A stretch of 64,000 nt of DNA from Thermoanaerobaculia bacterium (GTDB lineage Bacteria; Acidobacteriota; Thermoanaerobaculia; Multivoradales; UBA5704). Numbering within the stretch: the stretch's first letter is position 1; each line of letters begins with the position of its first letter. The position numbers were made by a program, and so were the translations under genes. The notes below the pieces were generated by a model, which worked only from the letters and a program-made list of their open reading frames with translations, made no database searches and had not been told where the DNA came from. The stretch covers positions 18-64,017 of the forward strand of contig JBBRUC010000004.1 in NCBI GenBank assembly GCA_038248205.1, given 5' to 3'. Of this stretch, positions 4,515-37,746 are shown one piece after another.

Positions 4515-4562
4515 GGGTTGGGGGGTGGCCGCCGAGATTGTGTTCGGCCGTCCGCGGACGTG

Positions 4563-6715: not shown

Positions 6716-6795
6716 CGGGGTATCCCCTCGGAAATAGGCAATCCGAAGCGCGTTCTTCGACGCTTCGAGGAAGGTAAGGTTCTGTCCAGTCTACG

Positions 6796-10254: not shown

Positions 10255-10271
10255 GGGCGGGGACATCTTCC

Positions 10272-10413
10272 CTGCGGGCGGCTCCTCGTAACTCGCTTCG
10301 CTCAGACAGACTCGGAGCCGTCCTCGGAAAGATGTCCCCGCCCTGCGGACAGCTCCTCGTAACTCGCTTCGCTCAGACAGACTCGTAGCCGTCCTCGGAA
10401 AGTTGTCCCTGCC
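10272..10413. repeat. two tandem copies of a 71-bp unit between convergent genes
   Basis: Direct comparison of 10272-10342 with 10343-10413 shows 5 mismatches in 71. In addition, 10255-10271 (GGGCGGGGACATCTTCC) is complementary to 10326-10343, which would form a long hairpin. Confidence 0.85.
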
Positions 10414-10416
10414 CTC

Positions 10417-11868
10417 TTACGAGGCCCCCCGGCCGAGCAGCACCACGGGAATCGTCTTGAGCAGGATTTTCAGATCGAGCGACGGCGACCAGGAGTCGAT
10501 GTATTCGAGGTCGAGTTCCATCCAGCGGTCGAAATCGACGTTGTTCCGGCCGCTGATCTGCCATAGGCAGGTGAGGCCGGGTTTCATCGACAGGCGCCGA
10601 CGCTGCCACCGCTCGTAGCGCGCGACCTCTTCCGGGATTGGCGGACGCGGCCCGACCAGGCTCATGTCGCCGCGCAGGACGTTCCAGAGCTGCGGCAACT
10701 CGTCCAGACTGAACTTCCGCAAGAAGCGGCCGATCCAGGTCACCCGCGGGTCGCTCTTGAGCTTGAACACCGGGCCGTTCATCTCGTTCAGGTGCATCAG
10801 CTCGCTCTGCTGCTCTTCGGCCCCCACCACCATGGTGCGGAACTTGTAGAGCGTGAACGAACGGCCGTTCAAGCCGCATCGGGTCTGGCGAAACAGCACC
10901 GCGCCGCCCGAGGTGACCCGGATCAACAGGGCGACCCCGGCGGCGATCGGTATCGCGAGCACCAGGAGCGACGAGGCGACCGCGACGTCGAGCGCCCGTT
11001 TGGTCATCAGCTGCAACGGATTGGTCGGCGCGGTGGCGAACGAGACGAGCGGCATGCCGTCCAGGTCTTCCAGCTCCACCCGCGCCCGGGTGTGGGGGAA
11101 CAGGTTCATCGCGAACCGGGTGCGAATTCCCTGCTCTTGCAGCGACAGGAACAGATCCTCCAGCCGGTCGAGTTCGTTGCGGTGGACCGCGAAGATCACG
11201 TCGTCGATCACCCGATCCTGGACCAGATCGGGGATGTCCTCGATCCGGCCGACGATGCGATAGCGGCGCGGCCAGTTCGCGGGGATCGCCTCGTTCTCGA
11301 CGAAGCCGAGGATGCGATAGCCCCAGAAGCGATGCTGGTCGAGCGAGTCGGCGATTTGCAGCGCGCTGTCGTTGGTGCCGACGATCAACACCGTCCGGTA
11401 GTTGAAGCCGATGCTGCGGACGTAGCGCGAGGTGAGCCGGACCGCGATCTTTTCCGACAGCAGGAACAAAAGGGAGAAGACCGCGAACAGGAGCACCCAG
11501 GAGCGGCTGACCCGGTCGGAGCCGAGAATCTCCTCGTCGATCCGCAAGGCGTAGAGCGAGAGGGTGAAAATCACCGATCCGGAAATACAGATGCGGATGA
11601 TCACCCACGCCTCGTCGAGCAGCGGGACCGTGCGGTGCGACCGGTAGCGGCCCGACGAGAGCAGCAGCGTGCCCCAGATCAGCAGGGCGAGCGGCAGAAG
11701 CGGCAGGTAGGCCGAAAGCGGATAGAGCCGGCTGGGGAAGGCGTGCGGCGCGATGTCCGGCAGCAGCCAGCTACGGAGGAGAAATGCGCAGACGAACGCC
11801 CCGGCGACCAGGGCGAGATCGACGACGAAAATGCCGACCGCGAGAATGCGTGCGCGTTCTTTGAGCAT
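10417..11868 (-). CDS. exopolysaccharide polyprenyl glycosylphosphotransferase (bacterial sugar transferase, WbaP-like)
   Basis: N-terminal TM helices and a central Rossmann-like segment. The C-terminus reads LDELPQLWNVLRGDMSLVGPRP...KPGLTCLWQISGRN, the Bac_transf signature. Confidence 0.9.
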   Translation of the reverse strand: MLKERARILAVGIFVVDLALVAGAFVCAFLLRSWLLPDIAPHAFPSRLYPLSAYLPLLPLALLIWGTLLLSSGRYRSHRTVPLLDEAWVIIRICISGSVIFTLSLYALRIDEEILGSDRVSRSWVLLFAVFSLLFLLSEKIAVRLTSRYVRSIGFNYRTVLIVGTNDSALQIADSLDQHRFWGYRILGFVENEAIPANWPRRYRIVGRIEDIPDLVQDRVIDDVIFAVHRNELDRLEDLFLSLQEQGIRTRFAMNLFPHTRARVELEDLDGMPLVSFATAPTNPLQLMTKRALDVAVASSLLVLAIPIAAGVALLIRVTSGGAVLFRQTRCGLNGRSFTLYKFRTMVVGAEEQQSELMHLNEMNGPVFKLKSDPRVTWIGRFLRKFSLDELPQLWNVLRGDMSLVGPRPPIPEEVARYERWQRRRLSMKPGLTCLWQISGRNNVDFDRWMELDLEYIDSWSPSLDLKILLKTIPVVLLGRGAS

Positions 11869-12011
11869 TTAGATTGTTGGGTCTCGCCTGCTCCGAAATG
11901 AACCTCGTGGTGATTTTAACGGATTGGAACGAAAAAGCGTCCAATCGCCAAAGATCGCGGTGGAGTGTTTTTTCAGGCCCGATCGGAATTTAGCTGAGCC
12001 GAACCTAGAAT

Positions 12012-13157
12012 TCACCTGAGCTTCGGGCCTGACAACCGGACAAAAAGGGCGGCGTAGCGGTCGGCGACCGAGTCCCAACTGAACCGCTCGGCCGCGCGGG
12101 CGGCGGCTTCCCTCCGCAGCGCCTCCACCTCCTCAGGGTGCGCCAGAGCCCATTCGATTTCCGCCGTCAGGGTCATCGGCCGGTGGGCGTTGAACCGCCG
12201 TGCCGTGCCGCCCGCGACCTCGCGATTCTCCGGCGTGTCGTGGAGCAGCACACAGTTGCCATAGCCCATCGCCTCCACCAACGCGGGGTGGGTGCCCCCT
12301 ACTTCGGTCGCGTGAATGTAGGCGTAGGCGTGGGAAAGCAGCTCGCGGTACCCCTCGCCGTAGATCGGCCCGGGGAACTTGATCCGCGAATCGGCGTCGG
12401 TCGTGAAGCTCGCGATGAACCCTTGGGCATACGGCGCGCCGCCCACCATCACCAGCGGCATCTCGCCCGCCGCGCCCGAACCGATTCCGCGCGGTACCTC
12501 GCGCCACGCCGCGGCCACCCGATGCGGGTTGTTCTCCGGCTCAAATCGACTGACGTAGAGAAAATACCGCCGCGAGGTAAGGCCCAGCTGGGCGAGCACC
12601 CCGGTCTCACGGGGCGGCCGGGGGTCGACTCCGTAGGTGATCACGTCCGACGCGGCACGGTAGCGGGCGAGGTAGTGCGAGCGAATGACCTCGGCATCGG
12701 TGATCAAGGCGTCGGGCAGAAAACAGGCGAGCCGCTCCGACAGGGCGTAGACCGCGCGCCCGAACGCCCCCCACTTCGCCCGCCGCTTTTCGATCCCGTC
12801 GACATTCAGGGCGACCGGCGTGCCGGCCAGCAGCGGCAGGAACATCGCGTTGGCCGAGTTGACCATCAGCGCGGCGTCGTACCCCTCGCGCCCGGCATGC
12901 AGGCACGACAGGAAGGTGTGGACCGGCGTGTCCAGGTGCTTGCCGCGGATCGTCGGCAAGACGACCAGCCGGGCGCCGAGGTGGGAGGCGAGCCCCTTCG
13001 GCGTGTAGTGCGATCGGCAATAGACCGTGACCTCGAAGCCGCGCGCGATCAACCGCGGCGCCAGCTCCTCCATCAAGGTCTCGTAGCCGCCATAGCGGCC
13101 CGGAATGCCGCGGCTGCCGAGCAGGGCGACGCGCAGCGGCCGGCCGGCGGCGGTCAC
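12012..13157 (-). CDS. glycosyltransferase family 4 (DUF1972-type N-terminus)
   Basis: RVALLGSRGIPGRYGGYETLMEEL is the DUF1972/GT4 N-terminus, and there is a C-terminal GT1-type E(x7)E region (THPALVEAMGYG). The start is set at GTG 13157, giving a GTGA overlap with the upstream stop. The track start at 13184 is the alternative. Confidence 0.85.
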   Translation of the reverse strand: MTAAGRPLRVALLGSRGIPGRYGGYETLMEELAPRLIARGFEVTVYCRSHYTPKGLASHLGARLVVLPTIRGKHLDTPVHTFLSCLHAGREGYDAALMVNSANAMFLPLLAGTPVALNVDGIEKRRAKWGAFGRAVYALSERLACFLPDALITDAEVIRSHYLARYRAASDVITYGVDPRPPRETGVLAQLGLTSRRYFLYVSRFEPENNPHRVAAAWREVPRGIGSGAAGEMPLVMVGGAPYAQGFIASFTTDADSRIKFPGPIYGEGYRELLSHAYAYIHATEVGGTHPALVEAMGYGNCVLLHDTPENREVAGGTARRFNAHRPMTLTAEIEWALAHPEEVEALRREAAARAAERFSWDSVADRYAALFVRLSGPKLR

Positions 13158-14176
13158 AGGGGAATCCCTTCGATGCCAAACCAACGATCGAGCGCTGCGG
13201 CGCCTACCGTCCGCTGCCCTTGGATCGCCCGCCGCCGCGCGAGGATCTCGCGCCGATGGCGCCAGAGCCAGGCGTAGGCGGGCAGCGAGGTCCGTTCCTT
13301 GAGGATCGCGTAGCCGAGCGCCAGAACGTCGCGGCCGAGGGTGGGCAGGGCGGTGCGCAGGAAATTGCTCCCGGTCTGGTGGTACACCCTCAGGAGATAG
13401 CGATTTTTGAGCGAGTGGCGGTTCACTTCGGGCGGCATCGCGCTGCGCCGTTCGGGCAGGTTGTACCGCTTGTGCAGGGCCACCGCCCCGGGCTCATAGA
13501 GAATTTCCCACCCCCGCTCGCGCAGGCGAAAGCAGAGTTCCGCATCCTCCCGGAACGAGTGGAACGCGGGATCGAAGATCGCCCCTTCTAGCGCCACGTC
13601 GTCGAGCGCCGCACGACGAAAGAGCGACGCCGCGCCGGTTGCGCCGAACACCCGCGCCGCCCGAGAGTACTGCCCCGCATCGACCTCGCCCGATCCCCGG
13701 TCCAGATGCCGCCAGGTCCGGGTGAGCCGCATGCCGCAGGCGTCGAGAACCGGGGGAGGAGCGTCCGTTCCCGAAGAGGCGCGGACCAGCCGGCCGGTGA
13801 CCGCGCCGACTTGGAGATCCGGATGCGCCGCCACCCGTTCGAGCAGCCGATCCAGGTAGTCGGGCGCCGGAAGTGCGTCGGCATTGAGCGTCAACACCCA
13901 AGGCGCCGACGTCTTGGAAAACGCCACGTTCATCCCGCCGGCAAACCCGAGGTTTTCAGCGGACGGTACGACGGTCCCGGGAATCTCGGACGGCAGATCC
14001 CGCGCCAGCCGCTCGGCCTCCGCGGCGCTGCCGTCGCCGCTCGCGCAATCGACCACCACCAGCTCGATCGGCCGGTACGTGAGCCCGGCGATCGCCCGGA
14101 AGCAAGCGGCAAGATCGCCGGCCGAATTGTGCGTGACGATCGCGATCGCGACAGCGGCATCGTGATTTTCAGTCAC
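13154..14176 (-). CDS. glycosyltransferase family 2
   Basis: AIAIVTHNSAGDL...VVVDCASGDGS...LGFAGGMN is GT2 (GT-A, DxD-type). The long N-terminal part of the track ORF overlaps the upstream GT2, so I trimmed it to GTG 14176, giving a GTGA overlap with the stop at 14173-14175. Confidence 0.8.
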   Translation of the reverse strand: MTENHDAAVAIAIVTHNSAGDLAACFRAIAGLTYRPIELVVVDCASGDGSAAEAERLARDLPSEIPGTVVPSAENLGFAGGMNVAFSKTSAPWVLTLNADALPAPDYLDRLLERVAAHPDLQVGAVTGRLVRASSGTDAPPPVLDACGMRLTRTWRHLDRGSGEVDAGQYSRAARVFGATGAASLFRRAALDDVALEGAIFDPAFHSFREDAELCFRLRERGWEILYEPGAVALHKRYNLPERRSAMPPEVNRHSLKNRYLLRVYHQTGSNFLRTALPTLGRDVLALGYAILKERTSLPAYAWLWRHRREILARRRAIQGQRTVGAAALDRWFGIEGIPL

Positions 14177-15117
14177 GTGCTCGCTCCGCCGGGCTTCCAC
14201 CCCTGCCAGATCGTGCCGAGTATCGCGACCAGGCCGCGCGCCGCCTCGCCCCGGCTCGTCGCCCGAGCAGGCCGGCGGAACGGCACCACCAGGAGCCGCA
14301 GCAAGATCCCGAGCGCCAGTGTCCCGCGCGCCAGGCCGGCCCAGAATCCGCCGTGATGCTTTTTCAGATACCGAAGGAGGTTGCCGTAGTAGATCGAAAG
14401 AAACGGCCCATACCCCAAACGCGGCACGCTGCTCCCCAGCCCATGGCGAAAGACCGAACCGGGCCAATAGTGGAGCGTCAGGCCCGCCTGGCCCATCCGT
14501 TTCGCCAGGTCCACGTCCTCGAACCAGGCGGGAAAGAACCCGGCATCGAACCCGCCCACCCGCTCGAAGGCCGAACGGCGAATCGCCAGCGCGGCGGCGG
14601 CCGGCTGCTCGACGCGCGCGCCCGCGGCCGGTTCTTCTCTGGGTCCATTTCCCGCGGGGATCAAAAGCGTCTGGAGCAACAAGGTGGCGGGAGAAGGAAG
14701 CGGCCGTAGCTGCCACCGATGCTGGGAGTTACCATCCTCTCCCAAAAGCTTCGGAGCGAGCCCGGCCGCATCGGGTAAAGCCGCGAAGCCCTCGACCAAC
14801 CGATCCAAAGCTCCGGGCTCCGGATGGGCATCCGGATTCAAAAACAAAAGAATCTCCCCGCGAGCCCCCGCCGCCCCCTCGTTCGCACCCCCCGCAAATC
14901 CCAGGTTCTCGCCCGGAGCCACGAGCCGGTACGCTCCCGGAGGCAGCACTCCCTCCGAGCCGTTGTCGACCACGATCAGCTCGAACCGTGGATCCCCCGG
15001 CCAAGCGGCGACCAACTCGGCTAGCTCCGTCTCATTCCGCCAATGGACGACGATTCCAGAAAGAAGAGGGGAGGAGGTAGACGAGGAATCGGGCAACATG
15101 AGGGGCGGAGCGATCAT
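14173..15117 (-). CDS. glycosyltransferase family 2
   Basis: SGIVVHWRNE...LIVVDNGSEG...NLGFAGGANEG is GT2. The start is set at ATG 15117, because the track's longer start would run through the 44-bp repeat. Confidence 0.75.
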   Translation of the reverse strand: MIAPPLMLPDSSSTSSPLLSGIVVHWRNETELAELVAAWPGDPRFELIVVDNGSEGVLPPGAYRLVAPGENLGFAGGANEGAAGARGEILLFLNPDAHPEPGALDRLVEGFAALPDAAGLAPKLLGEDGNSQHRWQLRPLPSPATLLLQTLLIPAGNGPREEPAAGARVEQPAAAALAIRRSAFERVGGFDAGFFPAWFEDVDLAKRMGQAGLTLHYWPGSVFRHGLGSSVPRLGYGPFLSIYYGNLLRYLKKHHGGFWAGLARGTLALGILLRLLVVPFRRPARATSRGEAARGLVAILGTIWQGWKPGGAST

Positions 15118-15138
15118 AGCGCCGCCAGCGCTTTCCCG

Positions 15139-15182
15139 CTTTCCCTGGGAACGCCGAGCACCAGCTCGGCATCCGAAGCGGC
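15139..15182. repeat. 44-bp direct repeat, left copy, containing hairpin GCCGAGC-ACCA-GCTCGGC
   Basis: Exact identity to 15759-15802 (CTTTCCCTGGGAACGCCGAGCACCAGCTCGGCATCCGAAGCGGC), read directly from the sequence. Confidence 0.95.
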
Positions 15183-15244
15183 CCGCAACAGCCAAGATCG
15201 CCAAAGAGACCGAGCGGGACTACAATTCCAATCGAGGTAGGACC

Positions 15245-15721
15245 ATGGCAGAGCCCCAGATCAAGCCAACAGCACCGGCCGCCCGAGCCGACGAATTCTT
15301 TCGCCACGAGAGTTTCGAAGCACTGGCTCGCGCGCAAGGAGTTCGCCCTGCAACCCGCCTCGAAAGCTACGAAGGGGGTTGGCCGGCGGATCAGCTCGAC
15401 GACGGTTTCGAGGAAGCGCTGCTCCGGGATACACCCTCCAGCGGCAACGTCTTTCTCGACCTGGGCTTTGGCGAGGAGGAGGGCGAGCGCCTGCGGATTC
15501 GGTCGTCCCTCATGATCGCGATCCGCAAGCTTATCGAGGAGCGGAGTCTCACGCAGGCGGATGCGGCGAAGCTCTTCGGTGTGACCCAGCCGCGGATCAG
15601 CAACCTGGTTCGCGGCAAAATCGACCTTTTCAGCATCGATACCCTGGTCGACATGCTAGCCCGTGGAGGAGTCCGCGTCGAAGTCTTGGTCTCCGAGGCG
15701 ATGAAGCGCGGAGCCGCATAA
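15245..15721 (+). CDS. XRE-family HTH protein, antitoxin-like (HTH_37/COG5606-like C-terminal half) with an N-terminal extension of about 75 aa
   Basis: Starts at ATG 15245 within the track ORF. The C-terminal half NVFLDLGF...RSSLMIAIRKLIEERSLTQADAAKLFGVTQPRISNLVRGKIDLFSIDTLVDMLARGG matches the XRE-type antitoxin HTH pattern. No toxin-like ORF is adjacent. Confidence 0.75.
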   Translation: MAEPQIKPTAPAARADEFFRHESFEALARAQGVRPATRLESYEGGWPADQLDDGFEEALLRDTPSSGNVFLDLGFGEEEGERLRIRSSLMIAIRKLIEERSLTQADAAKLFGVTQPRISNLVRGKIDLFSIDTLVDMLARGGVRVEVLVSEAMKRGAA

Positions 15722-15758
15722 GGCCGCCAAGAACGAAACCCGCCTCGACCCAGGGAGC

Positions 15759-15802
15759 CTTTCCCTGGGAACGCCGAGCACCAGCTCGGCATCCGAAGCG
15801 GC
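15759..15802. repeat. 44-bp direct repeat, right copy
   Basis: Exact identity to 15139-15182. Confidence 0.95.
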
Positions 15803-15979
15803 GAAAATGCCAAAGCAGCCGAGTCGCTGCTCGGCGAGCCGTGAGATGATGAACCGCAGAACCCGCTCGCGCGTAGCGCGGGAGCGTACGGTGGAGTTCC
15901 CGCCGGTGGCGCGCGGCTCTGGATAGCGGAGGACGCGGGGATCCGCGGTCTTGGCCACAGTAACGATGCGCGGAGCTGG

Positions 15980-16031
15980 CTTCGACTTCGCTCAGCCAGC
16001 GGGTAGACCCGAGCCCTGAGCGTAGTCGAAG
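15980..16031. repeat. long imperfect hairpin (16-bp arms, 1 mismatch, 20-nt loop)
   Basis: CTTCGACTTCGCTCAG (15980-15995) pairs with CTGAGCGTAGTCGAAG (16016-16031). It lies in a 650-bp non-coding stretch. Confidence 0.8.
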
Positions 16032-16073
16032 GGCGGTCGCAGGGTGCGGAAGATGCGAGACGAGATTTTGTTA

Positions 16074-16122
16074 CTGGGAAGCGGCTATCGACGCTGGATA
16101 GCGGCTATCCGCCCGGATATCC
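16074..16122. repeat. GGAAGCGGCTATC / GCTATC-N7-GATAGC repeat copy
   Basis: GCTATC (16084-16089), a 7-nt spacer, then GATAGC (16097-16102). The 16-mer CTGGGAAGCGGCTATC recurs at 21803-21818. Confidence 0.8.
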
Positions 16123-16158
16123 CCTTCCGGAGTGGCAGGAGACCCACGCTTTCCTCTT

Positions 16159-16320
16159 TCATCGCAAGGTCTCCGACCCAACAACCAGCAACGCAGATCG
16201 CAAGCACATCGGCTGAACGGCGCCCTCGCCTTCCGCTCGATCGGTCATCAGGACGCCGTCCAGATGGTCGATCTCATGTTGGACCAATTCGGACAGATCC
16301 GGCGGCAGATCCTCCCACAT
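16159..16320 (-). pseudogene. def: peptide deformylase C-terminal fragment (relic)
   Basis: Minus-strand translation gives MWEDLPPDLSELVQHEIDHLDGVLMTDRAEGEG...*. QHEIDHLDG is PDF motif 3 (QHExDH). An in-frame stop lies directly upstream. The motif 1 (GxGxAAxQ) and motif 2 (EGCLS) regions are missing, because the neighbouring gene ends at 16375. Confidence 0.5.
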
Positions 16321-16374
16321 CGATCACCAGCAAGGCGACCACAGGAGGGCGAAGAAGCCGACCCCGAGCCGGCA

Positions 16375-17514
16375 TCAAGGTGTCGATGCGCTCGCGGCGG
16401 CCTTGGTTTCGTCCGCCGCGATGTCAGTGCTCGGGACTTCCTTCCAGGGAGCCTCGTCGAGGGCATCCCACGACAGCTTCCAGCGACCCGCACGAGCGTT
16501 CCACGCTGCCAGGTAGAGCCCGTCTCTGCCCGCAGCGATCGTGAATCGGCCAGGCTGGGAAAGCGTGAGGGGTACCCTCTCCAGACGCGTGAGCACCGGG
16601 TCGTACCGATCGATCGCAAGGCCGGAACCTGCGCCGCCAGCGGCTGCCAGGAAATACATTTTGTGATCGCGACCCTCGGTGAGATCCAAGATCGCCGCCT
16701 CCGCCCGAAACGCCTGGAAACCCGCCGGGCGCTTCGGATCGGGAGCTGCGGGCTTCGTCTCTCTGACTTTGCCGCCATCGACCGCGATACGCAACCTGGT
16801 TTGGCCGGAAGATCCGAGCTGTTCGACCACGTAGGCATACTGGCGCGCCACCCAAAGCCGGCCGCTGGAATCGGAGGTGACGAACGCCGCGTGTTGCGCT
16901 ACCGCGTCGTTGCGGCCGCGCGGGTTCGCCTCCGCTTCCTCGGCCGCAGAGAGATCCGAATATTCAGCCTCGACGTTCCAACGGTCGCCATCGAACTCCA
17001 TCAGACGGGGAACCTGCCCTTTGCGCTCTCGAAACACAAGATCGTCGGATACCGGAAGCGGCACGATCGAAACCACCGGCTGGTCACGATGGAAGCCGAT
17101 CCCGGAGGGCCGCCAATCGAGCGCCGGAATCGGCTTCTCTTTGCCGTTGACGAATCGCCTGACTCCGAGGTCAACGGACAGGAACCACACGTCTCCGCCG
17201 GGGCTCAACACCGCATCTCGGACGATTTGGGGCGCCGCCCCGACACGCTCCAGGCGCTGCGCCTCCTGCAGCTTCCCGGATCGGGCGAGTGGATAGACGT
17301 CCAGAGTCTCCGGACGGAAAAAGAAGACATTTCCTATCCGGTCGGCTCGAACGAATTGCGAACCGTCCCAGCTATCGGCCTCGCCGCTAGCAACCGGTTC
17401 CGCAACGAGCCGGCGCTCAGCCGGCGGTGCGACCGCACCCGCTGCGATACCGAAGGTACACAGCGCGACGAGCCAGCGAGCGAAGCGCCGCGCCAACATC
17501 AGTTGGGATTTCAT
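16375..17514 (-). CDS. hypothetical exported protein
   Basis: Starts at ATG 17514. Signal-like MKSQLMLARRFARWLVALCTFGIAAGA. Protein-like composition with repeated strand-like segments. No family recognised. Confidence 0.6.
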   Translation of the reverse strand: MKSQLMLARRFARWLVALCTFGIAAGAVAPPAERRLVAEPVASGEADSWDGSQFVRADRIGNVFFFRPETLDVYPLARSGKLQEAQRLERVGAAPQIVRDAVLSPGGDVWFLSVDLGVRRFVNGKEKPIPALDWRPSGIGFHRDQPVVSIVPLPVSDDLVFRERKGQVPRLMEFDGDRWNVEAEYSDLSAAEEAEANPRGRNDAVAQHAAFVTSDSSGRLWVARQYAYVVEQLGSSGQTRLRIAVDGGKVRETKPAAPDPKRPAGFQAFRAEAAILDLTEGRDHKMYFLAAAGGAGSGLAIDRYDPVLTRLERVPLTLSQPGRFTIAAGRDGLYLAAWNARAGRWKLSWDALDEAPWKEVPSTDIAADETKAAASASTP

Positions 17515-17729
17515 TGCCCCTCCCAAAGTAGTACAAGGCGTTAGCGCTCTCTTACTCTAAACTGAGGTGCTTGCCAGCCGATATCCGAGACAAGAAAATC
17601 CGCCATCCGAAGCCGGCAACCTACCGGACGCCCAGATCGAACGCGTACCTTCGCTTTCAAGCTCAGCCGACGGGAGGCATCGAGCAGTCCCGCCGAATCG
17701 AGAAACGTTTCTTCGCTCCGCCAGATCGA

Positions 17730-20700
17730 TTACTCGGAGGGTGCGCCCTCTTCCCCCCAATCCATCTCATCTTCCATCTCTTCGAGGTACGGCGGTGGAT
17801 CAACCTCAGCCTCGTCCGCCAACTCGTCGAGCGTTACGACCGAGCCGTCGTCGAGCAGCACGTCGCCACGGACGATGAACTGCAGGCCCCAGCAGAGGGG
17901 CTCAGGGTAGCCCTCGCCGCCGGTGCGGGCGGCGGTTTCCAGGAGAGCTTTGTCGTCCGCATCGCTTCGTCGCGCGATGTGGCGCGCAAGCGCGGGCCAG
18001 AGGGGATCGAGATGGGGGTCGGGTTCCAGCAGGTCGGGGGTAGGGGCGCGTTGCGGGTCGATCGAGCACCGACTCGCTTCGGCAAGCAGGTGGTCGAGAG
18101 ATGTCTTCGGCTTCTCCCTCTGCGCCAGAAGACCACGCGCGCCCGCACGGCCCAGGGAATAGAGTTCGGTCAGCACGAAATTTTCCACCCACGCGGAGCG
18201 TGGGTCGAAATCAAATTTCTCGGCCCAGTCGCGAGCCCAGTCGCGAGCCCAGTCGCGAGCCAAGTCGCGAGCCAAGTCGCGAGCCAAGTCGCGAGCCCAG
18301 TCGCGAGCCAAGTCGCGAGCCCAGTCGCGAGCCCAGTCGCGAGCCAAGTCGCGAGCCCAGTCGCGAGCCAAGTCGCGAGCCCAGTCGCGAGCCCAGTCGC
18401 GAGCCCAGTCGCGAGCCCAGTAGCGAGCCCAGTCGCGAGCCTGCGGGTCTTCCTGAGAGAGAGCCAGGGCTCTCCGCGCGAGAGCGAGTAGCGATTCGCG
18501 CGGGGCACCCGCGGCTACTGCCGATTGCAGTTGCAGACCCGCCCGGCGGCGATGGCCGGGCCAAAGGTGAAGAGCGCCGAAATCGTGCTCGGCGGGCCAG
18601 AGTGGATACGAGCCCACAAGGAGCCGACCCGCTGCGATGTCAGAGCGAGACACCCGATTTTCGCCCTGGATCGCCGCGAGGAGCGCATTCGCGCCGGGCC
18701 GAACGGGCGGGTGCGCCAACTCGGCCCACCCCTCACCGAATATCTCGCATCGCTGCCACCCGAGCCAGCACTGCCGCGCGGCGGCCGCGTCGAGCGCGTC
18801 CGCTAGAACCGCCTTTCGCTCCTCAAGTCGTGTCGCTTGCCAAGCACGCGAACAGAGGTCGGCACCGTCCGGCCAGGTCGAATCGAAAAGAGGTAGATAC
18901 AAGCTCATCCACGATTCAAACAGCGGCTCATCCCCAAGCCGGTCGGCGAAAACCGTCCCAACGAAGGAGAGAGCTTTATCCTCGGAAGGATTGTGAATCA
19001 GCTCCGTCAGCACGGCGTCGAGCGTTGGCGGATGGGGCCCGTGAATCTGCGCCGCGAGGAGGCGCAGGGTTTCCCACCAGTTGAATTCGCCGAGCCGCTC
19101 GCGAAAAGCATCGATCCGCAAGGTCTCGTTGTTCGCCGTAGCGGCGAGGTGGTAAGCCGTCAGATACTCCTGAAAGCTCAAGTGGGCAAAGCTGAGGGTG
19201 CCGTTGGCATAGTCGACCAACAGGCCGGCGACCTCGACGAGCCAGACTAGAAAGCCTTCCGGATCAATGCACTCGGCAGGAAGAAACTGGCGTATCTCTT
19301 CCCGCTTTCGCACGATCGGTGCTCGGGCTATCTTTTTATAGCCCTCGGTCTGTACCCGGAACGCCAGCTCCGCCACCCAGCGCTTCCGCGGCTCGATCTC
19401 GGCTGGACACCAGGCAAGCGGCCCGACCTGGGCGCCCTCTTTAGCTTTGGCTGCCGGTCGGGTATGCAGAAACGCCTTAATGCACTGCTCGTACAGCTGG
19501 TGCCGCCGATCCGGTAGAGGCTCCGATTCGCCGACCACCAGCATCATGGTCAGGAGAATCGGCGTCCGGGCGAGGTCGCGCGCCTCGGGGCTGGCCTGTA
19601 ACGCCACGCGAAAATGTTCCGCGTCCCGCGTCGCACTCTCGCTGCTGGAAAAGCGATGGAAGTAGCGCCCCGTCATCTCCTCGATATCGGCATCCGAAAG
19701 GGGCTGCACCTCCAGAACCTCGAACGCGTCGTAGTGCCCCGGTCGTCCTTCGCCATACGGCCGGCTGGTGACCACGGCGAGGACCCGAGGATGAGTCTTG
19801 AGAAAGCCGGCGAGCTTGGCGCGAAAGCTTTCTCCCAGAGGACCAAGTTCATCCCAGCCATCGACGAGCAGAATCGGTCGGGGGCCGTTCTGCTCGCGTA
19901 GCAAGGGCAAGATCCGCTCCTTCCAACCCGTGCCCATCTGCTCGCCGATCCAGTGGCCGATCGCCGCCTCGATCGATCGCTCCGCGCCTTTTACTTCCGG
20001 GCCTTGCCAGCGGCGCGCGACATCACGCAAGACGATCATCAACGGCAAGGCGCTCGGTTCATCCAAGAGTTGCCGAAACGTGTAGCGCGACCACGTGGTC
20101 TTACCCGCCCCGGCAACGCCGACGAGCGCGAGGTGCTTGTTGCGGCCGAGGAGATTCTTCGAAAGAAGGGGTTTCCCTTTCGCGGTCTCGTTAGGATCGA
20201 AACTCTCATCGAACCGCAGTACCTGATACATCTCGTCGAGTTGAGCGTCTTTCGCTCCGCGGATTCCTCCTGGCCTTATGGTGCCGAGAGAACCCAAGTC
20301 CCAGCGGTCGAAGTGACCCTTGAACGAGCGGCGAAACTCTTCGACGAAATCCGGGTCTGTGCCGGCGGATTTCGGAGTTGCAGTGGAGGCGGGGACGGGT
20401 GTTTTGGCGTAGCCTTCGGGTAGATCGAGCCGCTGATCGATCGTCTCCTTCAGGTTGAGCGCGAAGTTTCCGGCCTCAACAGATCCGGTGACTCGGTACC
20501 GAGCGGAGTACTCCAATCGAAACGCGCGGATTCTCGCGCTCTCAGGCTCCAGCAGAATTAGCTGCGCCGAAGCGGGCTCGTCCTTGGGCAGCACGTCGGC
20601 GTTCAAGGCAAGGCTACCGGCCGAGATCACGTGCGTATGGCCAAGGCGATCCCACGGCCACGAATGATCGTCCGTCGCGTGCTGGTGCCCGTGGAGAAGA

Positions 20701-21509
20701 AGCTGCACATGAGCATCCTTCGTCACCTTCACCAGATGCTCTCGGACCTCGATTCCCAGCGCGTCGCTCTCGTAGCGCGCGAGAAGCGCGTCATCGAACG
20801 ACTGCTTTTCCTTGAGGTAGGTCCGCCATTCATCGAGGACCGGGCGCTTAGCGCGGTCGGGATTGTGGTGAACCGCAACGATCTTCAGCTGGCTCGCCGC
20901 CTCGACTTTAAGAAGCGCGTCCATCGCAGCCTGCGCTTGCTTCGGGCCGATGACGCCTCGATGAATCTTGTGCGACTCCTCCTCGCAAGAATTGAGCGCC
21001 GCGACGACGAGTCGATGGTGCGGAAAGCGATAGATCCGCGCACCGAGGGTGAGGGGGTCCGAGATCTCCGCGAGGTCGTCGACGCCGTAGAACTCGCGCA
21101 GGAAGCTTTCATAGATGTCGAGCTTCACCGCGTCCAGCCGATCTCGGAGGCTCTCCTCGGTGAGCAGCTCCTGCTCCTCCAGGTCCGCCTCCGCCTTTTT
21201 GCACGATGCCCAATTCACGTCGTGATTGCCTGGGACGAAAACGAAACGTTGCCGCTCGATCCCGATCGCGCCCGCAAGGCCTTCGAGGAACACACGCCCC
21301 TGCGCGAACTCCGACTTCTTGCCCGCCTCCGCGACGTCCCCGGTGACGAACACCAGATCGATCTTCTTGTCAGCGAGCCCGACCTCCGTTTGCGCCACGG
21401 CCACCGCTGCGTAGAAGCTCTCCCCGAGCGCCTTGGGGTCTTTACCCTGAAAGCGGCTGTGGGGACCGAAATGAAGATCGGATAGATGGAGCAAAAGGAT
21501 CGACGGCAT
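17730..21509 (-). CDS. metallophosphoesterase-NACHT (STAND NTPase) fusion protein with a C-terminal ARD[W/L] tetrapeptide array; candidate NLR-like immune sensor
   Basis: Calcineurin-like motifs appear in order: [41 protein letters not shown] motifs: Walker [14 protein letters not shown] (about 20091-20120), Walker [13 protein letters not shown], then [11 protein letters not shown]. This is followed by a long helical region, 18 ARD[W/L] repeats and an acidic tail. ATG 21509 is preferred over the track's TTG 21530. Confidence 0.9.
18225..18440 (-). repeat. 18 x 12-bp perfect-period in-frame tandem repeat inside the NACHT gene
   Basis: The plus-strand unit is CCAGTCGCGAGC or CAAGTCGCGAGC (ARDW or ARDL). 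Unit order in the protein is W,W,W,W,W,L,W,L,W,W,L,W,L,L,L,W,W,W. The only other substitution is D to Y in unit 2. Confidence 0.95.
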
Positions 21510-21701
21510 GTCCCGGCCTTTCGGAATCAAGGATCAAGAAAGTATGCGGCGATTCTATGCGAGACGGCGGGGGCCTGCGCCGTGAGCCGGCCGCAGAGGG
21601 CGAGGAGCGTCTTCATCTCGTTGAAAATGTCGGCGATCCCGGGGTACTTCGCGACATCCGGCTCCAGGTTGTCGACCTTGTCGGTACGACCGAAACGGCG
21701 C

Positions 21702-21892
21702 CGTAGAGCCGCTATCGGCGGCGGATAGCGAATTCGCGGCGGTGTAAAGCGGCTTCCTGGATCGGATAGCCGCTCTACGCTCCAGGAAGCCGCTTTCTCC
21801 CCCTGGGAAGCGGCTATCCGCCGCCGATAGCCGCTTCCTGGCTCGGAAAGCGAATTCTCAGTCGCGTAGAGCGACTATCGCTCGTGGATAGC
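21702..21892. promoter_or_regulatory. cluster of GCTATC-N7-GATAGC inverted repeats and related palindromes, upstream of the NACHT gene and of the divergent GT-C gene
   Basis: Sites at 21711-21729, 21813-21831 (within a perfect 13-bp-arm palindrome, 21806-21838) and 21874-21892 (ACTATC variant). There is also a hairpin with arms 21746-21761 and 21781-21796, and CGTAGAGC[CG][GA]CTATC copies in both orientations. Confidence 0.6.
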
Positions 21893-22139
21893 CGCTATAC
21901 GCCGGAGAGTTCACACGGCGGGTGGCGCATTTCTCTTGCCGCGCCGGCAATTGCGGAGCCGGCTCGGCAAGCCGCTTGCCCCGTTCACGCCGCCATCGCG
22001 GCCGGCGTTTGCCGCCCGTCGGACTCGCAAAGCGCGCGCGGCCGAACAGTCGGCGTGGGTAAACGCCGCCAACTCCTCCGAGGCGGACGATTACCGGTGC
22101 CCGCCGCCCCCGGCGAGAAGCCGCGTACAATCCACCGCC

Positions 22140-24236
22140 ATGTTCCTCGTCGACCTCCTCGGCGCGCTGCTGACGCTTGCGGCGTTCTCGTTCCTTGGCC
22201 TTTCCGGCTACTTGGCGGCGACCTCCCTGCTGGGCGAACGGGCGCGGCGAGATGCGCTCGCCCTCTCGGTCGCCTGGGGGCTTTCGGCGCTCTCGATCGC
22301 TCTTCTGATCGGCCTCCTTCTCGGATCGATTGGCCAACTCCGGATCGACCTCGCGCTCTCAGGGTTGGCGCTGCTCGCGATCCTGCAACTCCAGCGGGCC
22401 AAGCGGGCGGACGATCCGTGGGGACCTGCCCGCCGGCTGGGGTGCCGCGCTTGGGCTCATCTGGCCGAGCGGCCGGCGCTGGCGATCCTCACCGTCCATG
22501 CGGCAGGGAGCGAGCTGCTGCGCGGGCTGCTGCGGCCGCCCTTGAGTTGGGACAGCTTGATGTACCACCTGCTGCTCTCCGCCACCTGGTTGCAGGAGAA
22601 GAACCTGGCGCCGGTGTTCGGGCCGGCGCCCACCAACTTCTATGGCTTCCAGCCGGGCAACGGCTCGCTCTGGTTCTGGTGGTGGATGGCCCCGTCGCAC
22701 AGCGAATTCTGGGTCAACCTGGGTTCCGCTCTTCCCTGGCTACTGCTCGGCCTCGCGGCCGGTGCCGTGGCGCGGCAACTCGGGGCGGCCAAGAGCTGGC
22801 CGGTGGCAACGTACCTCACCCTGCTCACCCCGTGCATTCTGCGCTTCGTCGGCGCGCAGTACGTCGATCTGCTGGTGGGGGCGGGCATCGCCGCGGCGGC
22901 GTACTTCGCGCTCCTCTGGCTCGACGAGCCGCGCTGGGGAACGGCGCTCCTGGTAGGGGCCGGGCTCGGGATCGCCTCCGGGGCCAAAGTGCTGGCGCTG
23001 CCGTACGTCCTGGCCTTTGCCGGCGCGCTGCTGCTCGCGGCGGCGTGGCGCGGCGGATGGCGGGTGCGGGCAGGGCAGACCATCGCCGCGATCCTCCTCG
23101 CGTCGTTGCTCGGCGGCTACTGGTACGCACGGAACCTGGCCTACGGCGCCGGGCCGCTCGGTCTGCGCTGCGAGGGGACGGCGGCGGGGGCGGAGGCCGA
23201 TCGCGGCGAGAGGCCGACGATTCCGCGGCCCAATAGTGTGCTCGACCAGTTCGGCGCTTACCTCGGCTCGGGCCAGTTGATCGACGCGGGCCTCGGCGTC
23301 GTACGTCCGCAGTCGCTCGAATTGGGCCTGGGACCGCAGCTATTTCTGCTCCTTCCGCTGCTCCTTCTTCCTCTAGGCTTTCCGCGCGGGCGCCGCCCTG
23401 CCGTGCTCTTGATCTGGAGCCAGATCGCGGCGCAGGCTTTCGTTTGGGCGACCGTGCCCTACGCCGATCACGGCACGATCTACGCCAATATTCGATATCT
23501 GGACGGCGCGGTGGCGCTCGCTTGGGCCGGCGGGGTGGCGCTGCTCACGCTGCGCTCGGTCGCTTCGCGTTGGATCGAGGGGCTGGCGCTCGTGCTCGCG
23601 GTCCAGGGGCTGCTCCAACTGCATGCCGAAATGCCGCGCGGTGTCCGGCTCGCGATGGCGGTGGCGGATGTCGCGTTGGTCGCCTTGGCGCTGTCTCCGG
23701 CTTTGCGCCTGCGGCTTCGCCTACGCGCCCGGGGTTTGGCGGTCGGCGGGGTTGTTTTGATTCTTGCGCTCGCGCCGATCCTCACCGCCTTCCGGGCCGC
23801 CGACCGCGGCCGGGCGATGGCCTACGAGTTGACCGTCCACAAAACGCCGATCGAGCTGTTCGCCCGTGCTTGGAGCTGGCTCGATCGCTTCGGCGAGGAC
23901 GGCACGGTCGCCTTGGCGAGCAGCCCGCTGCACTATTTCGTCTATCCGGCGATGGGACCGCGGCTCGAACGCAAAGCGATCTTCGCCAACGTCAACGCTG
24001 CAGACCACGCCAACGTCGCGGAGTATCCCGCCTGCGATCCGCGCGTCGACCTCGATCCCCAAGCCTGGCTCGCGAACCTTGCCAAGCACGACGTCCGCTG
24101 GCTTCACCTGATGCGCTACCCGGGCACCGAATATCTACCCGAGCGCACCTGGGCCGACGCCCTGCCGGATCGCTTCACGCTCCGCTACGAGGACGACGGC
24201 AGTCGAATCTACGAGGTGACCGCGCGAGGGAGGTAG
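22140..24236 (+). CDS. polytopic membrane protein, GT-C glycosyltransferase-like (ArnT/PMT-like)
   Basis: Starts at ATG 22140 within the track ORF. More than 10 hydrophobic helices, then a soluble C-terminal domain. Loop LLRPPLSWDSLMYHLL. The family call is tentative. Confidence 0.65.
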   Translation: MFLVDLLGALLTLAAFSFLGLSGYLAATSLLGERARRDALALSVAWGLSALSIALLIGLLLGSIGQLRIDLALSGLALLAILQLQRAKRADDPWGPARRLGCRAWAHLAERPALAILTVHAAGSELLRGLLRPPLSWDSLMYHLLLSATWLQEKNLAPVFGPAPTNFYGFQPGNGSLWFWWWMAPSHSEFWVNLGSALPWLLLGLAAGAVARQLGAAKSWPVATYLTLLTPCILRFVGAQYVDLLVGAGIAAAAYFALLWLDEPRWGTALLVGAGLGIASGAKVLALPYVLAFAGALLLAAAWRGGWRVRAGQTIAAILLASLLGGYWYARNLAYGAGPLGLRCEGTAAGAEADRGERPTIPRPNSVLDQFGAYLGSGQLIDAGLGVVRPQSLELGLGPQLFLLLPLLLLPLGFPRGRRPAVLLIWSQIAAQAFVWATVPYADHGTIYANIRYLDGAVALAWAGGVALLTLRSVASRWIEGLALVLAVQGLLQLHAEMPRGVRLAMAVADVALVALALSPALRLRLRLRARGLAVGGVVLILALAPILTAFRAADRGRAMAYELTVHKTPIELFARAWSWLDRFGEDGTVALASSPLHYFVYPAMGPRLERKAIFANVNAADHANVAEYPACDPRVDLDPQAWLANLAKHDVRWLHLMRYPGTEYLPERTWADALPDRFTLRYEDDGSRIYEVTARGR

Positions 24237-37704: not shown

Positions 37705-37746
37705 ATCTCTGAAGCTCAAAGGCTGCCGCGAAAAGGAGGAGTCATC

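Follow-up and report, generated by a model that had tools for sequence, protein, structure and literature searches.

The window, the whole stretch of 64,000 nucleotides that was analysed, carries a single intact ORF (positions 17730-21530, minus strand) for a protein with a metallophosphoesterase (MPE) head, a NACHT domain and a putative C-terminal sensor (Table 1). An ATG at 21509, with a GAAAGG motif upstream and in agreement with the N-termini of homologues, gives a gene of 1,259 codons. Because approximately 95 full-length homologues match the protein at 99-100% coverage and 33-63% identity, this ORF is not a chance occurrence. The original prediction had read from the sequence one 1,259-codon gene comprising an MPE with five intact metal and catalytic motifs, a NACHT-type STAND NTPase, a helical region, an 18-unit ARD[W/L] array and an acidic tail, arranged as an N-terminal effector, a STAND switch and a C-terminal repeat sensor. 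This description proved correct in its parts and its layout, with the small amendment that one of the 18 array units is ARYW.

Table 1. Features of the MPE-NACHT-sensor gene and its surroundings, in window coordinates.
Feature	Residues	Position	Strand	Basis
Complete CDS, MPE-NACHT-sensor protein	1-1259	17730..21509	-	1,259 codons + stop; conserved full-length in ~95 homologues
N-terminal metallophosphoesterase core (predicted effector)	1-310	20580..21509	-	metal and catalytic motifs all intact; PF00149, DS9_1, AF2
Small beta-sheet cap domain after MPE core	311-362	20424..20579	-	AF2 strands 313-321, 326-335, 348-360; pLDDT >90
Low-confidence linker and pre-NACHT helices	363-440	20190..20423	-	pLDDT 52-69; highest entropy within N-terminal half
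NACHT nucleotide-binding domain (predicted)	441-620	19650..20189	-	Walker A 464-472, Walker B 547-554, sensor-1 T-S582-R583-P584; Pfam, Foldseek
NACHT helical and winged-helix subdomains (predicted)	621-800	19110..19649	-	F-A-H776-L-S-F-Q-E-Y-L motif; profile match to NLRP2/3/7 winged-helix region
Variable all-helical sensor region A (putative)	801-1023	18441..19109	-	AF2 helices, pLDDT mostly >90
Tetrapeptide array	1024-1095	18225..18440	-	18 exact 12-nt units: 11 ARDW, 6 ARDL, 1 ARYW
Conserved C-terminal helical domain	1096-1235	17805..18224	-	pLDDT 86-97; contains W-G-L-x-x-I-V-R-G-D
Acidic tail	1236-1259	17733..17804	-	semi-conserved motif P-Y-L-E-x-M; predicted disordered (AF2)
7.0-kb variable segment with MPE-NACHT gene		15119..22113		flanks syntenic with close relative (blastn vs L086)

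Genomic setting of the gene

The gene occupies a variable slot whose flanks are 78-86% identical by blastn to those of the close relative L086, in which the slot is filled by an unrelated 2.5-kb cassette. Its GC3 is 0.74, compared with ~0.84 in neighbouring genes, and the flanking genes encode exopolysaccharide glycosyltransferases, a lysyl-PG-synthase-like membrane protein and an ABC transporter. No known defence genes were found in the window: PADLOC, which had been proposed as a check, returned 0 matches for the 8 unannotated ORFs either side, Pfam assigned only housekeeping-type families to the remaining scanned ORFs, and the ORF earlier called 'XRE' has just a weak HipB-like HTH match. 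The neighbours do not bear out the earlier view of this region as a defence locus, although the gene does sit in a variable 7-kb slot.

Across 77 homologous loci no conserved neighbour gene was found, which points to a single-gene system. A gene-by-gene inspection of seven homologous loci showed mainly housekeeping genes around them (nuo and arg operons, glycoside hydrolases, kinases), and otherwise only toxin-antitoxin pairs, a KAP NTPase or a PD-(D/E)XK/AAA gene; in both P0013 and P0028 the gene lies between Methyltransf_28 and nuoA. A PADLOC scan of the 150 nearest neighbours from 33 homologous loci, performed without a background control, yielded strong matches to Septu PtuA (E 4e-107) and PtuB (6e-55), HEC-02A/B (5e-111 and 1e-69), Dsr2 (4e-64) and PDC-M28B (7e-142), and MADS, AriA-like and AbiLi models were matched as well.

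Domains of the protein and their relation to known systems

The MPE motifs read in the translation are D11-L-H13, G57-D58, G94-N95-H96-D97, H214-H215 and G274-H275-Q-H277. Residues H13, D58, N95, H96, H214, H215, H273, H275 and H277 are invariant among 79-95 sequences, and D11 is nearly so (at least 90%). Pfam Metallophos (PF00149) matches aa 6-278 at 43.7 bits (E 5e-11; cut-off 21.5). On its sequence, with a score above the gathering cut-off and the motifs DxH, GD, GNH[D/E], H and GHxH, the head is assigned to the calcineurin-like metallophosphoesterase superfamily. The closest NCBIfam model is the DS9_1 anti-phage phosphoesterase (E 1e-29, aa 5-309), with a further match to DS8_antiphage (E 9e-13); the PADLOC models that match are PDC-S60 and 'Effector/Endonuclease' (E ~1e-10), and a relative fused to SAVED and CHAT (P0097) is 48% identical to the head. 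Sequence comparison thus places the head in a clade used in defence.

In the AF2 model, where the MPE region has a pLDDT of 87.5, the top PDB folds are YydB, Rv0805, Lmo2642, GpdQ and SMPDL3A. The last four (Foldseek E 5e-12 to 1e-9; sequence profile E 1e-6 to 1e-4) have the fold and the dimetal site in common with the head, but are just 12-18% identical to it and are stand-alone or secreted proteins without STAND regulation. Assignment to the Mre11/SbcD nuclease subfamily, whose fold the original prediction had named ahead of that of cyclic-nucleotide phosphodiesterases, was rejected: TIGR00619 sbcd gives 19.2 bits (E 9e-4) where its cut-off is 77.65, and SbcD ranks 37th in Foldseek, behind phosphodiesterases.

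The central domain carries a Walker A motif (G464VAGAGKTT) and a Walker B motif (L547LVDGWDE) which, together with the TSRP sensor-1 and the winged-helix motif, are invariant across 79 homologues; within the winged-helix motif, the homologue alignment shows H776, Q780 and E781 to be invariant. Pfam NACHT (PF05729) matches aa 460-618 with 24.4 bits (E 3e-5), under its gathering cut-off of 26.7, and a precomputed match to the same model is present in most homologues. The top Foldseek matches are NLRP7, NOD2, NLRP9, NLRC4 and NLRP3 (E 1e-9 to 1e-6), a profile aligns aa 776-805 with the winged helix of NLRP2/3/7, and tblastn returns annotated NACHT proteins. From its motifs, modelled fold, profile and tblastn matches the domain is classified as a NACHT-clade STAND NTPase, and it stayed within this class in the profile searches that had been suggested as a check. 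We kept this assignment despite the sub-threshold Pfam score because the structure model and the motifs support it.

The helical region comprises the NACHT helical and winged-helix subdomains and a helical sensor, and is all-helical in the AF2 model. In the homologue alignment the sensor is more variable than either the NACHT domain or the effector, with a mean entropy of 2.43 bits in region A compared with 1.7 for NACHT, and no Pfam, NCBIfam or PADLOC model matches region A. The C-terminal domain has an entropy of 1.25-1.3 bits at aa 1171-1230, with D1186, L1190, R1214 and G1215 invariant.

The family amounts to ~250 clusters from Acidobacteriota, Myxococcota, Magnetococcales and others, and no full-length relatives were found on plasmids or phages. 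Relatives share the NACHT-sensor chassis (aa 441-1259) at 35-50% identity and bear MPE, TIR, SEFIR+TIR, SIR2, Mrr, CHAT, PNP or DUF4062 heads, or in some cases no recognised head; a tally by hand of 120 rows gave ~85 MPE and 16 TIR. Because TIR, SIR2, Mrr, CHAT and PNP domains replace the MPE on the same chassis, the predicted role of the MPE as an effector is strongly supported. Such swapping is a signature of immune STAND proteins.

An MPE on a bacterial NACHT protein is already known. DS-8 (DefensePredictor system 8; E. coli WP_032203427.1, a 3,045-nt gene of ~1,014 codons) is a single-protein metallophosphatase-NACHT with experimentally established anti-phage activity (PMC13092281, Science 2026). 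Phage defence is lost in each of the mutants D52A and N84A (metallophosphatase) and K375A (NACHT), the last at a position that the NACHT ATPase is predicted to require (PMC13092281). Both proteins place an N-terminal metallophosphatase before a NACHT NTPase in a single polypeptide, and the residues that by motif position correspond to D52, N84 and K375 (D58, N95 and K470) are all intact here. However, DS-8 is ~245 aa shorter and comes from E. coli rather than from Acidobacteriota. An orthologous relationship was rejected: the protein reaches 46.9 bits with the equivalog model NF053861 (994 positions), which has a cut-off of 790, and aligns only over aa 8-106, to profile positions 1-93, so that its NACHT domain and array-bearing C-terminal sensor are left unmatched.

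DS-9 is likewise experimentally anti-phage, and MPE catalytic mutations abolish its defence (PMC13092281). Orthology to DS-9A was also rejected, with NF053862 giving 103.8 bits against a cut-off of 420 over the MPE half only and no conserved partner gene found to match the HAD phosphatase of DS-9A. DS-9A, SAVED-fused and FGS-linked effectors have as partner or sensor a HAD phosphatase operon, SAVED or an FGE-sulfatase, whereas the present family has its own helical sensor. Three MPE-NACHT-SUMF1/FGE proteins (P0095, P0096 and P0100) show the combination of calcineurin, STAND and FGS that Kaur et al. (2021) had noted.

In its available text, the preprint of Kibby et al. (2022) includes calcineurin-like phosphoesterases among the N-terminal enzymatic effectors of bacterial NACHTs, and describes effectors that vary and sensors that follow the NACHT clade. 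The tripartite effector-NACHT-sensor organization of these bNACHT proteins recurs here, as does a variable head on the same chassis. In that portion of the preprint, the bNACHT proteins that were tested and whose effectors are given carry Mrr-like REase, Schlafen or PNPase domains, with calcineurin-like enzymes only in the catalogue; the sensor types given there (LRR, TPR, HEAT, beta-propeller, pentapeptide, FGS, TM and short extensions) do not include a tetrapeptide-periodic helical sensor. A 2026 STAND survey also has pfam00149 among its effector profiles, and counts a clade as defence-associated once annotated effector domains occur in 50% or more of its members. The earlier statement that no characterised member was known to pair an MPE effector with a tetrapeptide-repeat sensor is out of date as regards an MPE on a NACHT protein, given DS-8, the Kibby et al. 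catalogue and this survey; only the pairing with this sensor and its tetrapeptide array is still undescribed.

The Pfam/AF2 domain map and the effector swapping give the protein the bNACHT architecture, with an effector head that varies and a sensor at the C-terminus, and no PADLOC model covers its NACHT-sensor portion. The label 'Avs/bNACHT-type' is therefore right in its second half, whereas Avs is a looser analogy. Avs3 and Avs4 share the STAND logic of sensor, NTPase oligomerization and effector activation, but their structures scored far below the NLR NACHT structures in Foldseek (8dgc_A, E 5e-5; 8dgf_B, E 1.5e-3). Avs sensors are TPR-like, and the known Avs effectors are nucleases or proteases. 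Membership in Avs1-4 or another PADLOC-modelled STAND system was rejected, with just three PADLOC matches at E up to 1, all in the MPE region, and the NTPase and sensor uncovered.

The tetrapeptide array

Exactly 18 in-frame 12-nt units make up the array: 11 copies of GCTCGCGACTGG (ARDW), six of GCTCGCGACTTG (ARDL) and one of GCTCGCTACTGG (ARYW), with 0 synonymous differences among them. The period-4 signal is family-wide, with the unit consensus small-R-[D/Y]-[L/F/W]. Over 819 units the first position is small in 84% (A in 50%), followed by R, then D (45%) or Y (19%), then L/F/W (78%). Within the family the array spans 56 to 199 aa, and units are alike within one protein and different between lineages. 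In Polyangium orthologues (72-99% identity) the array is degenerate and free of indels, and it is conserved no less than the remaining sequence. AF2 models the array with low confidence (pLDDT 40-60). Tetrapeptide arrays resembling xRD[LM] were also found as low-complexity tracts of unrelated eukaryotic proteins.

Repeats at the C-terminus of NLRs have a precedent in fungi, whose NLR sensors carry high-identity internal repeats (WD40, ANK, TPR). The likeness is one of analogy, in that both are C-terminal arrays evolving in concert; in contrast, the fungal units have 30-40 residues rather than four, and the array described here is degenerate and stable in some lineages. The parts of the protein that look new are the Pfam-less helical sensor and its family-wide small-R-[D/Y]-[L/F/W] array of period 4, which would evolve in concert.

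Proposed function and alternatives

We consider it probable that the gene encodes a stand-alone, single-polypeptide immune sensor of the NLR-related bNACHT class in a Thermoanaerobaculia-like member of the Acidobacteriota. By analogy with NLR and Avs biology, the C-terminal helical sensor (region A, array and terminal domain) would hold the NACHT domain in an ADP-bound, closed and monomeric state at rest. A cue derived from a phage or mobile element, or a perturbation of the host, might engage the variable sensor, and nucleotide exchange or binding at the observed, intact Walker A/B site would then lead to oligomerization. This would gather and activate the N-terminal dimetal phosphoesterase domains, which may hydrolyse phosphodiester or phosphoanhydride bonds, most likely in nucleotides or nucleotide-derived metabolites or signals and less likely in nucleic acid. 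For this output step, the intact catalytic motifs and the phosphodiesterase-type fold neighbours are the observations at hand. The expected outcome would be growth arrest or a block to phage replication.

The same immune logic could instead end in an Mre11/SbcD-type nuclease that degrades DNA or RNA, of the phage or of the host, and not small nucleotides, which we regard as unlikely. Mre11 and SbcD do lie within the MPE superfamily, their chains are matched by the profile (E 7e-6 to 2e-4) as is TIGR00619 sbcd, and the PADLOC label 'Endonuclease' and the exchange of the head for an Mrr nuclease (L035) fit such an activity. However, the SbcD/Mre11 sequence matches span the first 96 residues only, and by fold the head lies closest to cyclic-nucleotide or general phosphodiesterases and to SMPDL3A (E 1e-12 to 1e-9), with SbcD at E 1e-4. 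The head is also exchanged for TIR, SIR2 and PNP domains, which act on small molecules, and the DS-8 authors themselves liken their phosphatase domain to SMPDL3A (PMC13092281). A role outside immunity, as a STAND-regulated phosphodiesterase for endogenous signalling such as cyclic-nucleotide turnover or development in bacteria of complex lifestyle, appears very unlikely. The concentration of the family in Myxococcota, Acidobacteriota, Magnetococcales and Planctomycetota would suit it, as would the Rv0805- and Lmo2642-like fold, the source annotation of homologues as 'cAMP phosphodiesterase CpdA', the several members that adjoin housekeeping operons and keep their gene order from one species to another (P0013 and P0028 at Methyltransf_28/nuoA), and a same-length gene conserved in five Polyangium species, steadier than typical defence genes. 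Yet a dedicated cyclic-nucleotide role is hard to reconcile with TIR, SIR2, Mrr, CHAT and PNP heads on one chassis. The variability of the sensor, the greatest in the protein, also argues against it, as do tandem paralogues in one relative, the variable slot in this genome, Septu, Dsr2 or HEC-02 neighbours in some relatives, and the need for homologous MPE domains in phage defence by DS-8 and DS-9 (PMC13092281).

Within the proposed immune sensor, the array could do no sensing itself, being either an in-frame minisatellite that is tolerated or a spacer arm that separates two subdomains of the sensor, and could owe its regularity solely to replication slippage. We hold this to be possible but somewhat unlikely. 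The 18 exact units without synonymous differences do indicate a very recent expansion, and the range of lengths, the low AF2 confidence and the resemblance to eukaryotic low-complexity tracts are compatible with a mere minisatellite. Against this, the period-4 segment keeps its position under MPE, TIR and SIR2 heads in several phyla, its residue preferences are position-specific, and its conservation without indels in Polyangium indicates purifying selection on a folded element. The array is probably an ancestral, structured and helical part of the sensor, and in the best explanation it appears to have undergone recent re-homogenization or in-frame expansion as a 12-nt minisatellite in this genome. 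More speculative, and in our view quite doubtful, is the proposal that it represents an undescribed class of NLR sensor repeat, a helical element with a four-residue period in a ligand-sensing or autoinhibitory surface, which evolves by in-frame 12-nt minisatellite expansion, homogenization and decay.

With DS-8 as a validated anti-phage example of the MPE-on-NACHT design, what this protein adds is the sensor domain and the four-residue repeat array. If the proposal of a new class of sensor repeat is true, the array would let the receptor adjust its arm length or specificity quickly and would be a bacterial counterpart to the concerted-evolution repeats of fungal NLRs. The chassis with its MPE, TIR or SIR2 heads would then constitute a distinct, uncharacterised bNACHT lineage with a trigger not seen before.

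Domain layout, fold and conservation of the protein

The gene occupies one uninterrupted long ORF (17730–21530, minus strand), in which an ATG at 21509, preceded by a GAAAGG motif and coinciding with the N-termini of homologous proteins, yields a product of 1,259 residues. The original prediction described a single gene with intact metallophosphoesterase (MPE) motifs, Walker motifs, an 18-unit array and an acidic tail, and each of these parts was found. All five MPE motifs are present in the translation (D11-x-H13, G57-D58, G94-N95-H96-D97, H214-H215 and G274-H275-Q-H277), as are Walker A (G464VAGAGKTT) and Walker B (L547LVDGWDE). Pfam Metallophos matches aa 6–278 (E 5e-11), and Pfam NACHT matches aa 460–618 (E 3e-5) with 24.4 bits, slightly under its gathering score of 26.7. 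No Pfam, NCBIfam or PADLOC model matches the sensor region, the array, the C-terminal helical domain or the tail.

Positions of features within the protein and around its gene (nucleotide positions are those of the window)
Feature	Position	Strand	Remarks
Perfect direct repeats, 44 nt	15139-15182 and 15759-15802		flank the XRE/HipB-like ORF
XRE/HipB-like ORF	15245-15721	+	couple_hipB, weak match, E 2.5e-4
Palindromic elements	16074-16106 and 21701-21896		AGCGGCTATC-N-GATAGCCGCT
383-aa protein, signal-peptide-like N-terminus	16375-17526	-	directly downstream of the MPE-NACHT gene
MPE-NACHT gene	17730-21509	-
766-aa protein	21936-24236	+	directly upstream of the MPE-NACHT gene, divergent
All-helical sensor region	aa ~801-1023		after NACHT; AF2 model
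Tetrapeptide array	aa 1024-1095; window 18225-18440		after the helical sensor region; 18 exact in-frame 12-nt units
Strongly conserved helical domain	aa ~1100-1235		after the array
Acidic tail, disordered			after the conserved helical domain

The AF2 model of aa 441–1259, the NACHT and sensor portion hereafter called the chassis, has a pLDDT of 87.4 and a pTM of 0.84. Its best structural matches are NLRP7, NOD2, NLRP9, NLRC4 and NLRP3 (E 1e-9 to 1e-6), with SAMD9, Avs3 and Avs4 ranking after these NLR NACHT structures. In addition, the family profile aligns aa 776–805 with the winged helix of NLRP2/3/7, and tblastn against plasmids returned only annotated NACHT proteins, matched over aa ~360–860. 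These three results uphold the predicted NACHT-type centre; a placement of the central domain outside the STAND NTPases was looked for and not found.

The model of aa 1–450 (pLDDT 87.5) matches, in rank order, B. subtilis YydB, Rv0805, Lmo2642, GpdQ and SMPDL3A. Because folds of the phosphodiesterase type rank first and SbcD comes only 37th, the MPE head is predicted to be phosphodiesterase-like rather than Mre11-like, and the emphasis originally placed on Mre11/SbcD is not supported. A literature search on YydB/YydD, the former being the best fold match, found nothing on function.

A search of 5.8 billion proteins returned ~95 homologues with 99–100% query coverage and 33–63% identity, all of ~1,250–1,400 aa and nearly all annotated as Metallophos+NACHT. 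They occur in Thermoanaerobaculia/Acidobacteriota, Holophagales, Myxococcota (Polyangium spp., Enhygromyxa salina, Hyalangium rubrum, Corallococcus exiguus, Haliangium and Kofleriaceae among the carriers), Magnetococcales, Hydrogenedentes, Planctomycetota, Armatimonadota and Bacteroidota, and the gene is stably conserved between Polyangium species. The gene thus belongs to a conserved family and is no chance ORF. All MPE metal ligands, the Walker A Lys, the Walker B acidic residues, the T-S-R-P sensor-1 motif and the winged-helix motif F-x-H776-L-S-F-Q-E-Y-L are (near-)invariant in an alignment of 79 sequences, and because of this the enzyme and the switch are both under purifying selection. 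The helical sensor, at 2.43 bits, and the array, at 2.61, show the highest column entropy; NACHT has 1.7 bits and the MPE 1.76, and the minimum of 1.25 falls at aa 1171–1230.

When aa 830–1259 were searched with phmmer against 1.84 billion representatives, nearly all matches were the C-termini of proteins of ~1,000–1,400 aa. Searches of plasmids and phages yielded generic NACHT or MPE matches and no full-length relatives. In one unannotated human-gut phage contig (MT835919.1, 2687–3454) there is an MPE gene whose product shares 27% identity with aa 6–277.

The tetrapeptide array

The array comprises 11 ARDW units, six ARDL and one ARYW, with no synonymous differences between them. Its periodicity extends across the family: between conserved anchors, mean lag-4 identity is 0.25, versus 0.035–0.05 at lags 2, 3, 5, 6 and 7, and the period-4 segment spans 56–199 aa (median 131). 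The segment is also found in relatives that carry TIR or SIR2 heads. Among 819 units, position 1 is small (A in 50%, A/V/G/S/T in 84%), position 2 is R, position 3 is D (45%) or Y (19%), and position 4 is L (36%), F (25%) or W (17%). Several other database matches (P0200, P0255, P0269, P0274, P0280, P0282 and P0285) align to the array only, and were rejected as unrelated low-complexity proteins.

The main unit differs by lineage, being ARDW in the protein studied here, SRDF in the homologue P0009, ARYF in P0032 and P0037, and VRDF in P0056. Because the dominant units are lineage-specific, the comparison indicates that array units probably evolve in concert. At the DNA level the array is 95% regular, whereas the closest homologue has only fragments of one. 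Two tandem MPE-NACHT paralogues in a metagenomic relative (L082; P0031 at 10001–13894 and P0049 at 14620–18534) carry 12-nt arrays of 23.4 copies (84% matches) and 24.9 copies (70% matches).

Whether the array is hypervariable among close orthologues was also considered, and this is ruled out in Polyangium, where a degenerate array is conserved like the rest of the protein, with zero indels. This conservation, together with the family-wide period of 4, suggests that selection maintains the array as a structural element, now and then re-homogenised, and that it is no free linker. In the AF2 model it forms three helices with a pLDDT of just 40–60, and a strict 4.0 period would be incompatible with a canonical coiled coil. 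A literature search for tetrapeptide repeats in connection with NACHT found nothing relevant.

Genomic setting of the gene and its homologues

A sugar transferase encoded in the window has a relative at 95% identity and numerous matches at 73–78% that are labelled Thermoanaerobaculia, which makes the source genome Thermoanaerobaculia-like. A close relative, L086, is collinear with the window on both sides of the gene, with window positions 26407–22114 and 15118–6798 being 78–86% identical in nucleotides. Between these flanks, which are ~82% identical in nucleotides, the window holds 7.0 kb (15119–22113) that includes the XRE-like ORF, the secreted 383-aa ORF and the MPE-NACHT gene, whereas L086 holds an unrelated 2.5 kb (4290–6778) with a cassette of three genes (378 aa, a Peptidase_M91 of 202 aa, and 193 aa), none of which is matched by PADLOC. 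The GC3 of the MPE-NACHT gene is 0.74, compared with ~0.84 in its neighbours. The gene is thus accessory in its genome, occupying a variable slot between conserved flanks. No tRNA that might serve as an integration site lies within the window.

Each 44-nt repeat contains the hairpin GCCGAGC-ACCA-GCTCGGC, and the window has no copies besides these two. Three of the palindromes sit directly 5' of the MPE-NACHT gene, in its divergent intergenic region, and one sits at the opposite end of the island; those at 16077–16106 and 21809–21838 form an inverted pair, 87% complementary and 5.7 kb apart. These palindromes could be REP-like elements, or could serve as operator sites. Neither the 383-aa nor the 766-aa protein has a match in Pfam, NCBIfam or PADLOC, and the gene for the latter is kept in L086 (701 aa there).

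The surroundings had been read as consistent with a defence locus. PADLOC, NCBIfam and Pfam recognised no defence gene among the neighbours in the window, and the nearby XRE gene that was cited in support resembles HipB only weakly. The flanks encode exopolysaccharide glycosyltransferases, an LPG-synthase-like membrane protein, DUF362 and a betaine ABC transporter, with redox enzymes farther off. A 920-aa patatin-like phospholipase ORF (37705–40467, plus strand) follows genes for a cytochrome-c-containing protein and a GMC oxidoreductase on the same strand.

When every ORF of 70 aa or more between 4 and 36 kb of the window was compared by tblastn with 77 related loci, the matches were chance or antisense ones only, and an operon or a conserved partner gene was rejected on this result. 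Because no neighbouring gene is conserved across these loci, the MPE-NACHT gene is a single-gene system. Among the 150 nearest neighbours at 33 homologous loci, PADLOC gave strong matches to Septu PtuA/PtuB, HEC-02A/B, Dsr2 and PDC-M28B, these being raw matches without a background rate. At the loci inspected gene by gene, neighbours are mostly housekeeping genes, with PIN/PhdYeFM pairs nearby in three. Two Acidobacteriota homologues, P0013 (L079) and P0028 (L080/L081), lie in the same place, between a Methyltransf_28 gene and nuoA; the stop codon of P0028 overlaps the nuoA start, and a PhdYeFM-PIN pair is close by.

Effector exchange and a proposed mechanism

The MPE head is matched by the NCBIfam models DS9_1 'anti-phage phosphoesterase' (E 1e-29) and DS8_antiphage (E 9e-13), and by the PADLOC models PDC-S60 and 'Effector/Endonuclease' (E ~1e-10). 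Among proteins without NACHT, its nearest relatives carry fusions to SAVED+CHAT, WD40, TIR, NB-ARC, HipA-N or SUMF1/FGE. By these profile matches and fusions, the head belongs to an MPE clade used in defence. A 624-aa Thermoanaerobaculia protein (L044, 10001–11872) joins an MPE head (51% identity, aa 4–349) straight to TIR, with no NACHT within the ORF.

When aa 441–1259 were used as the query, the chassis was found with other heads at 35–50% identity over 95–100% of its length. By hand count, ~85 of 120 table rows carry an MPE head and 16 a TIR head; SEFIR+TIR, PNP_UDP_1, DUF4062 and CHAT heads also occur, and some chassis have no recognised head. Genome loci add SIR2_2 and Mrr_cat heads. It is chiefly this effector swapping that carries the argument for an immune-type STAND protein. 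The clade of the head, single-gene status, the tandem paralogues of L082, the accessory location and the defence genes close to some homologues count for the same reading. Weighing against it are the window neighbours, among which no defence gene was recognised, the largely housekeeping surroundings of the homologues, the stable conservation in Polyangium and the finding of no full-length relatives on plasmids or phages.

The original prediction read a real gene well but overstated its novelty, since calcineurin-like NACHT effectors are already catalogued and one such protein, DS-8, is validated. Calcineurin-type heads were noted on STAND-FGS proteins by Kaur et al., calcineurin-like phosphoesterases are listed as bacterial NACHT effectors by Kibby et al., and pfam00149 is among the effector profiles of the 2026 STAND survey. 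DefensePredictor validated DS-8, a single E. coli metallophosphatase-NACHT protein whose D52A, N84A and K375A mutants lose defence (PMC13092281), and DS-9, a system of an MPE plus a HAD phosphatase. Our protein is an orthologue of neither DS-8 (46.9 bits versus a cut-off of 790, aligned at aa 8–106 only) nor the MPE component DS-9A (103.8 bits versus 420). Keyword literature searches for bNACHT with metallophosphoesterase, or NACHT with calcineurin-like anti-phage, found nothing relevant. The architecture class is therefore already known and is not a categorically new mechanism. The interesting remainder is an uncharacterised sensor whose tetrapeptide array seems to evolve in concert; a tetrapeptide-periodic helical sensor is not among the bNACHT sensor types listed by Kibby et al.

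We consider it reasonably probable that the protein works throughout by sensing, a NACHT switch and an MPE output, which is the most likely mechanism. The variable sensor would detect an invader-derived cue, upon which NACHT would bind nucleotide and oligomerise, and the clustering of MPE heads would activate them. The active heads would then hydrolyse a phosphodiester or phosphoanhydride substrate, such that growth or phage replication stops. The substrate favoured here is a small molecule of nucleotide type, with nucleic acid as the alternative. For this sensor-to-MPE mechanism, the analysis shows directly that the motifs are intact, what the folds are, that the effector is modular and that the gene is a single-gene system at an accessory location; the trigger, oligomerisation, the substrate and the outcome are inferred.

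The MPE, TIR, SIR2, Mrr, CHAT and PNP heads on one sensor chassis constitute a natural experiment: given this exchange, the MPE effector would have to achieve the equivalent of NAD+/nucleotide depletion or DNA cleavage. The tetrapeptide array offers an odd but concrete feature to test, both in its fold and in the possible tuning of sensing by unit number. Experiments are feasible because cultured carriers exist (Polyangium, Hyalangium rubrum, Corallococcus exiguus and Enhygromyxa salina). If our reading is right, the metallophosphatase-NACHT design of DS-8, which is validated although its mechanism is opaque, would reach beyond E. coli into a distinct family of ~250 clusters, whose host phyla, those of soil and sediment, are thinly covered by defence catalogues.
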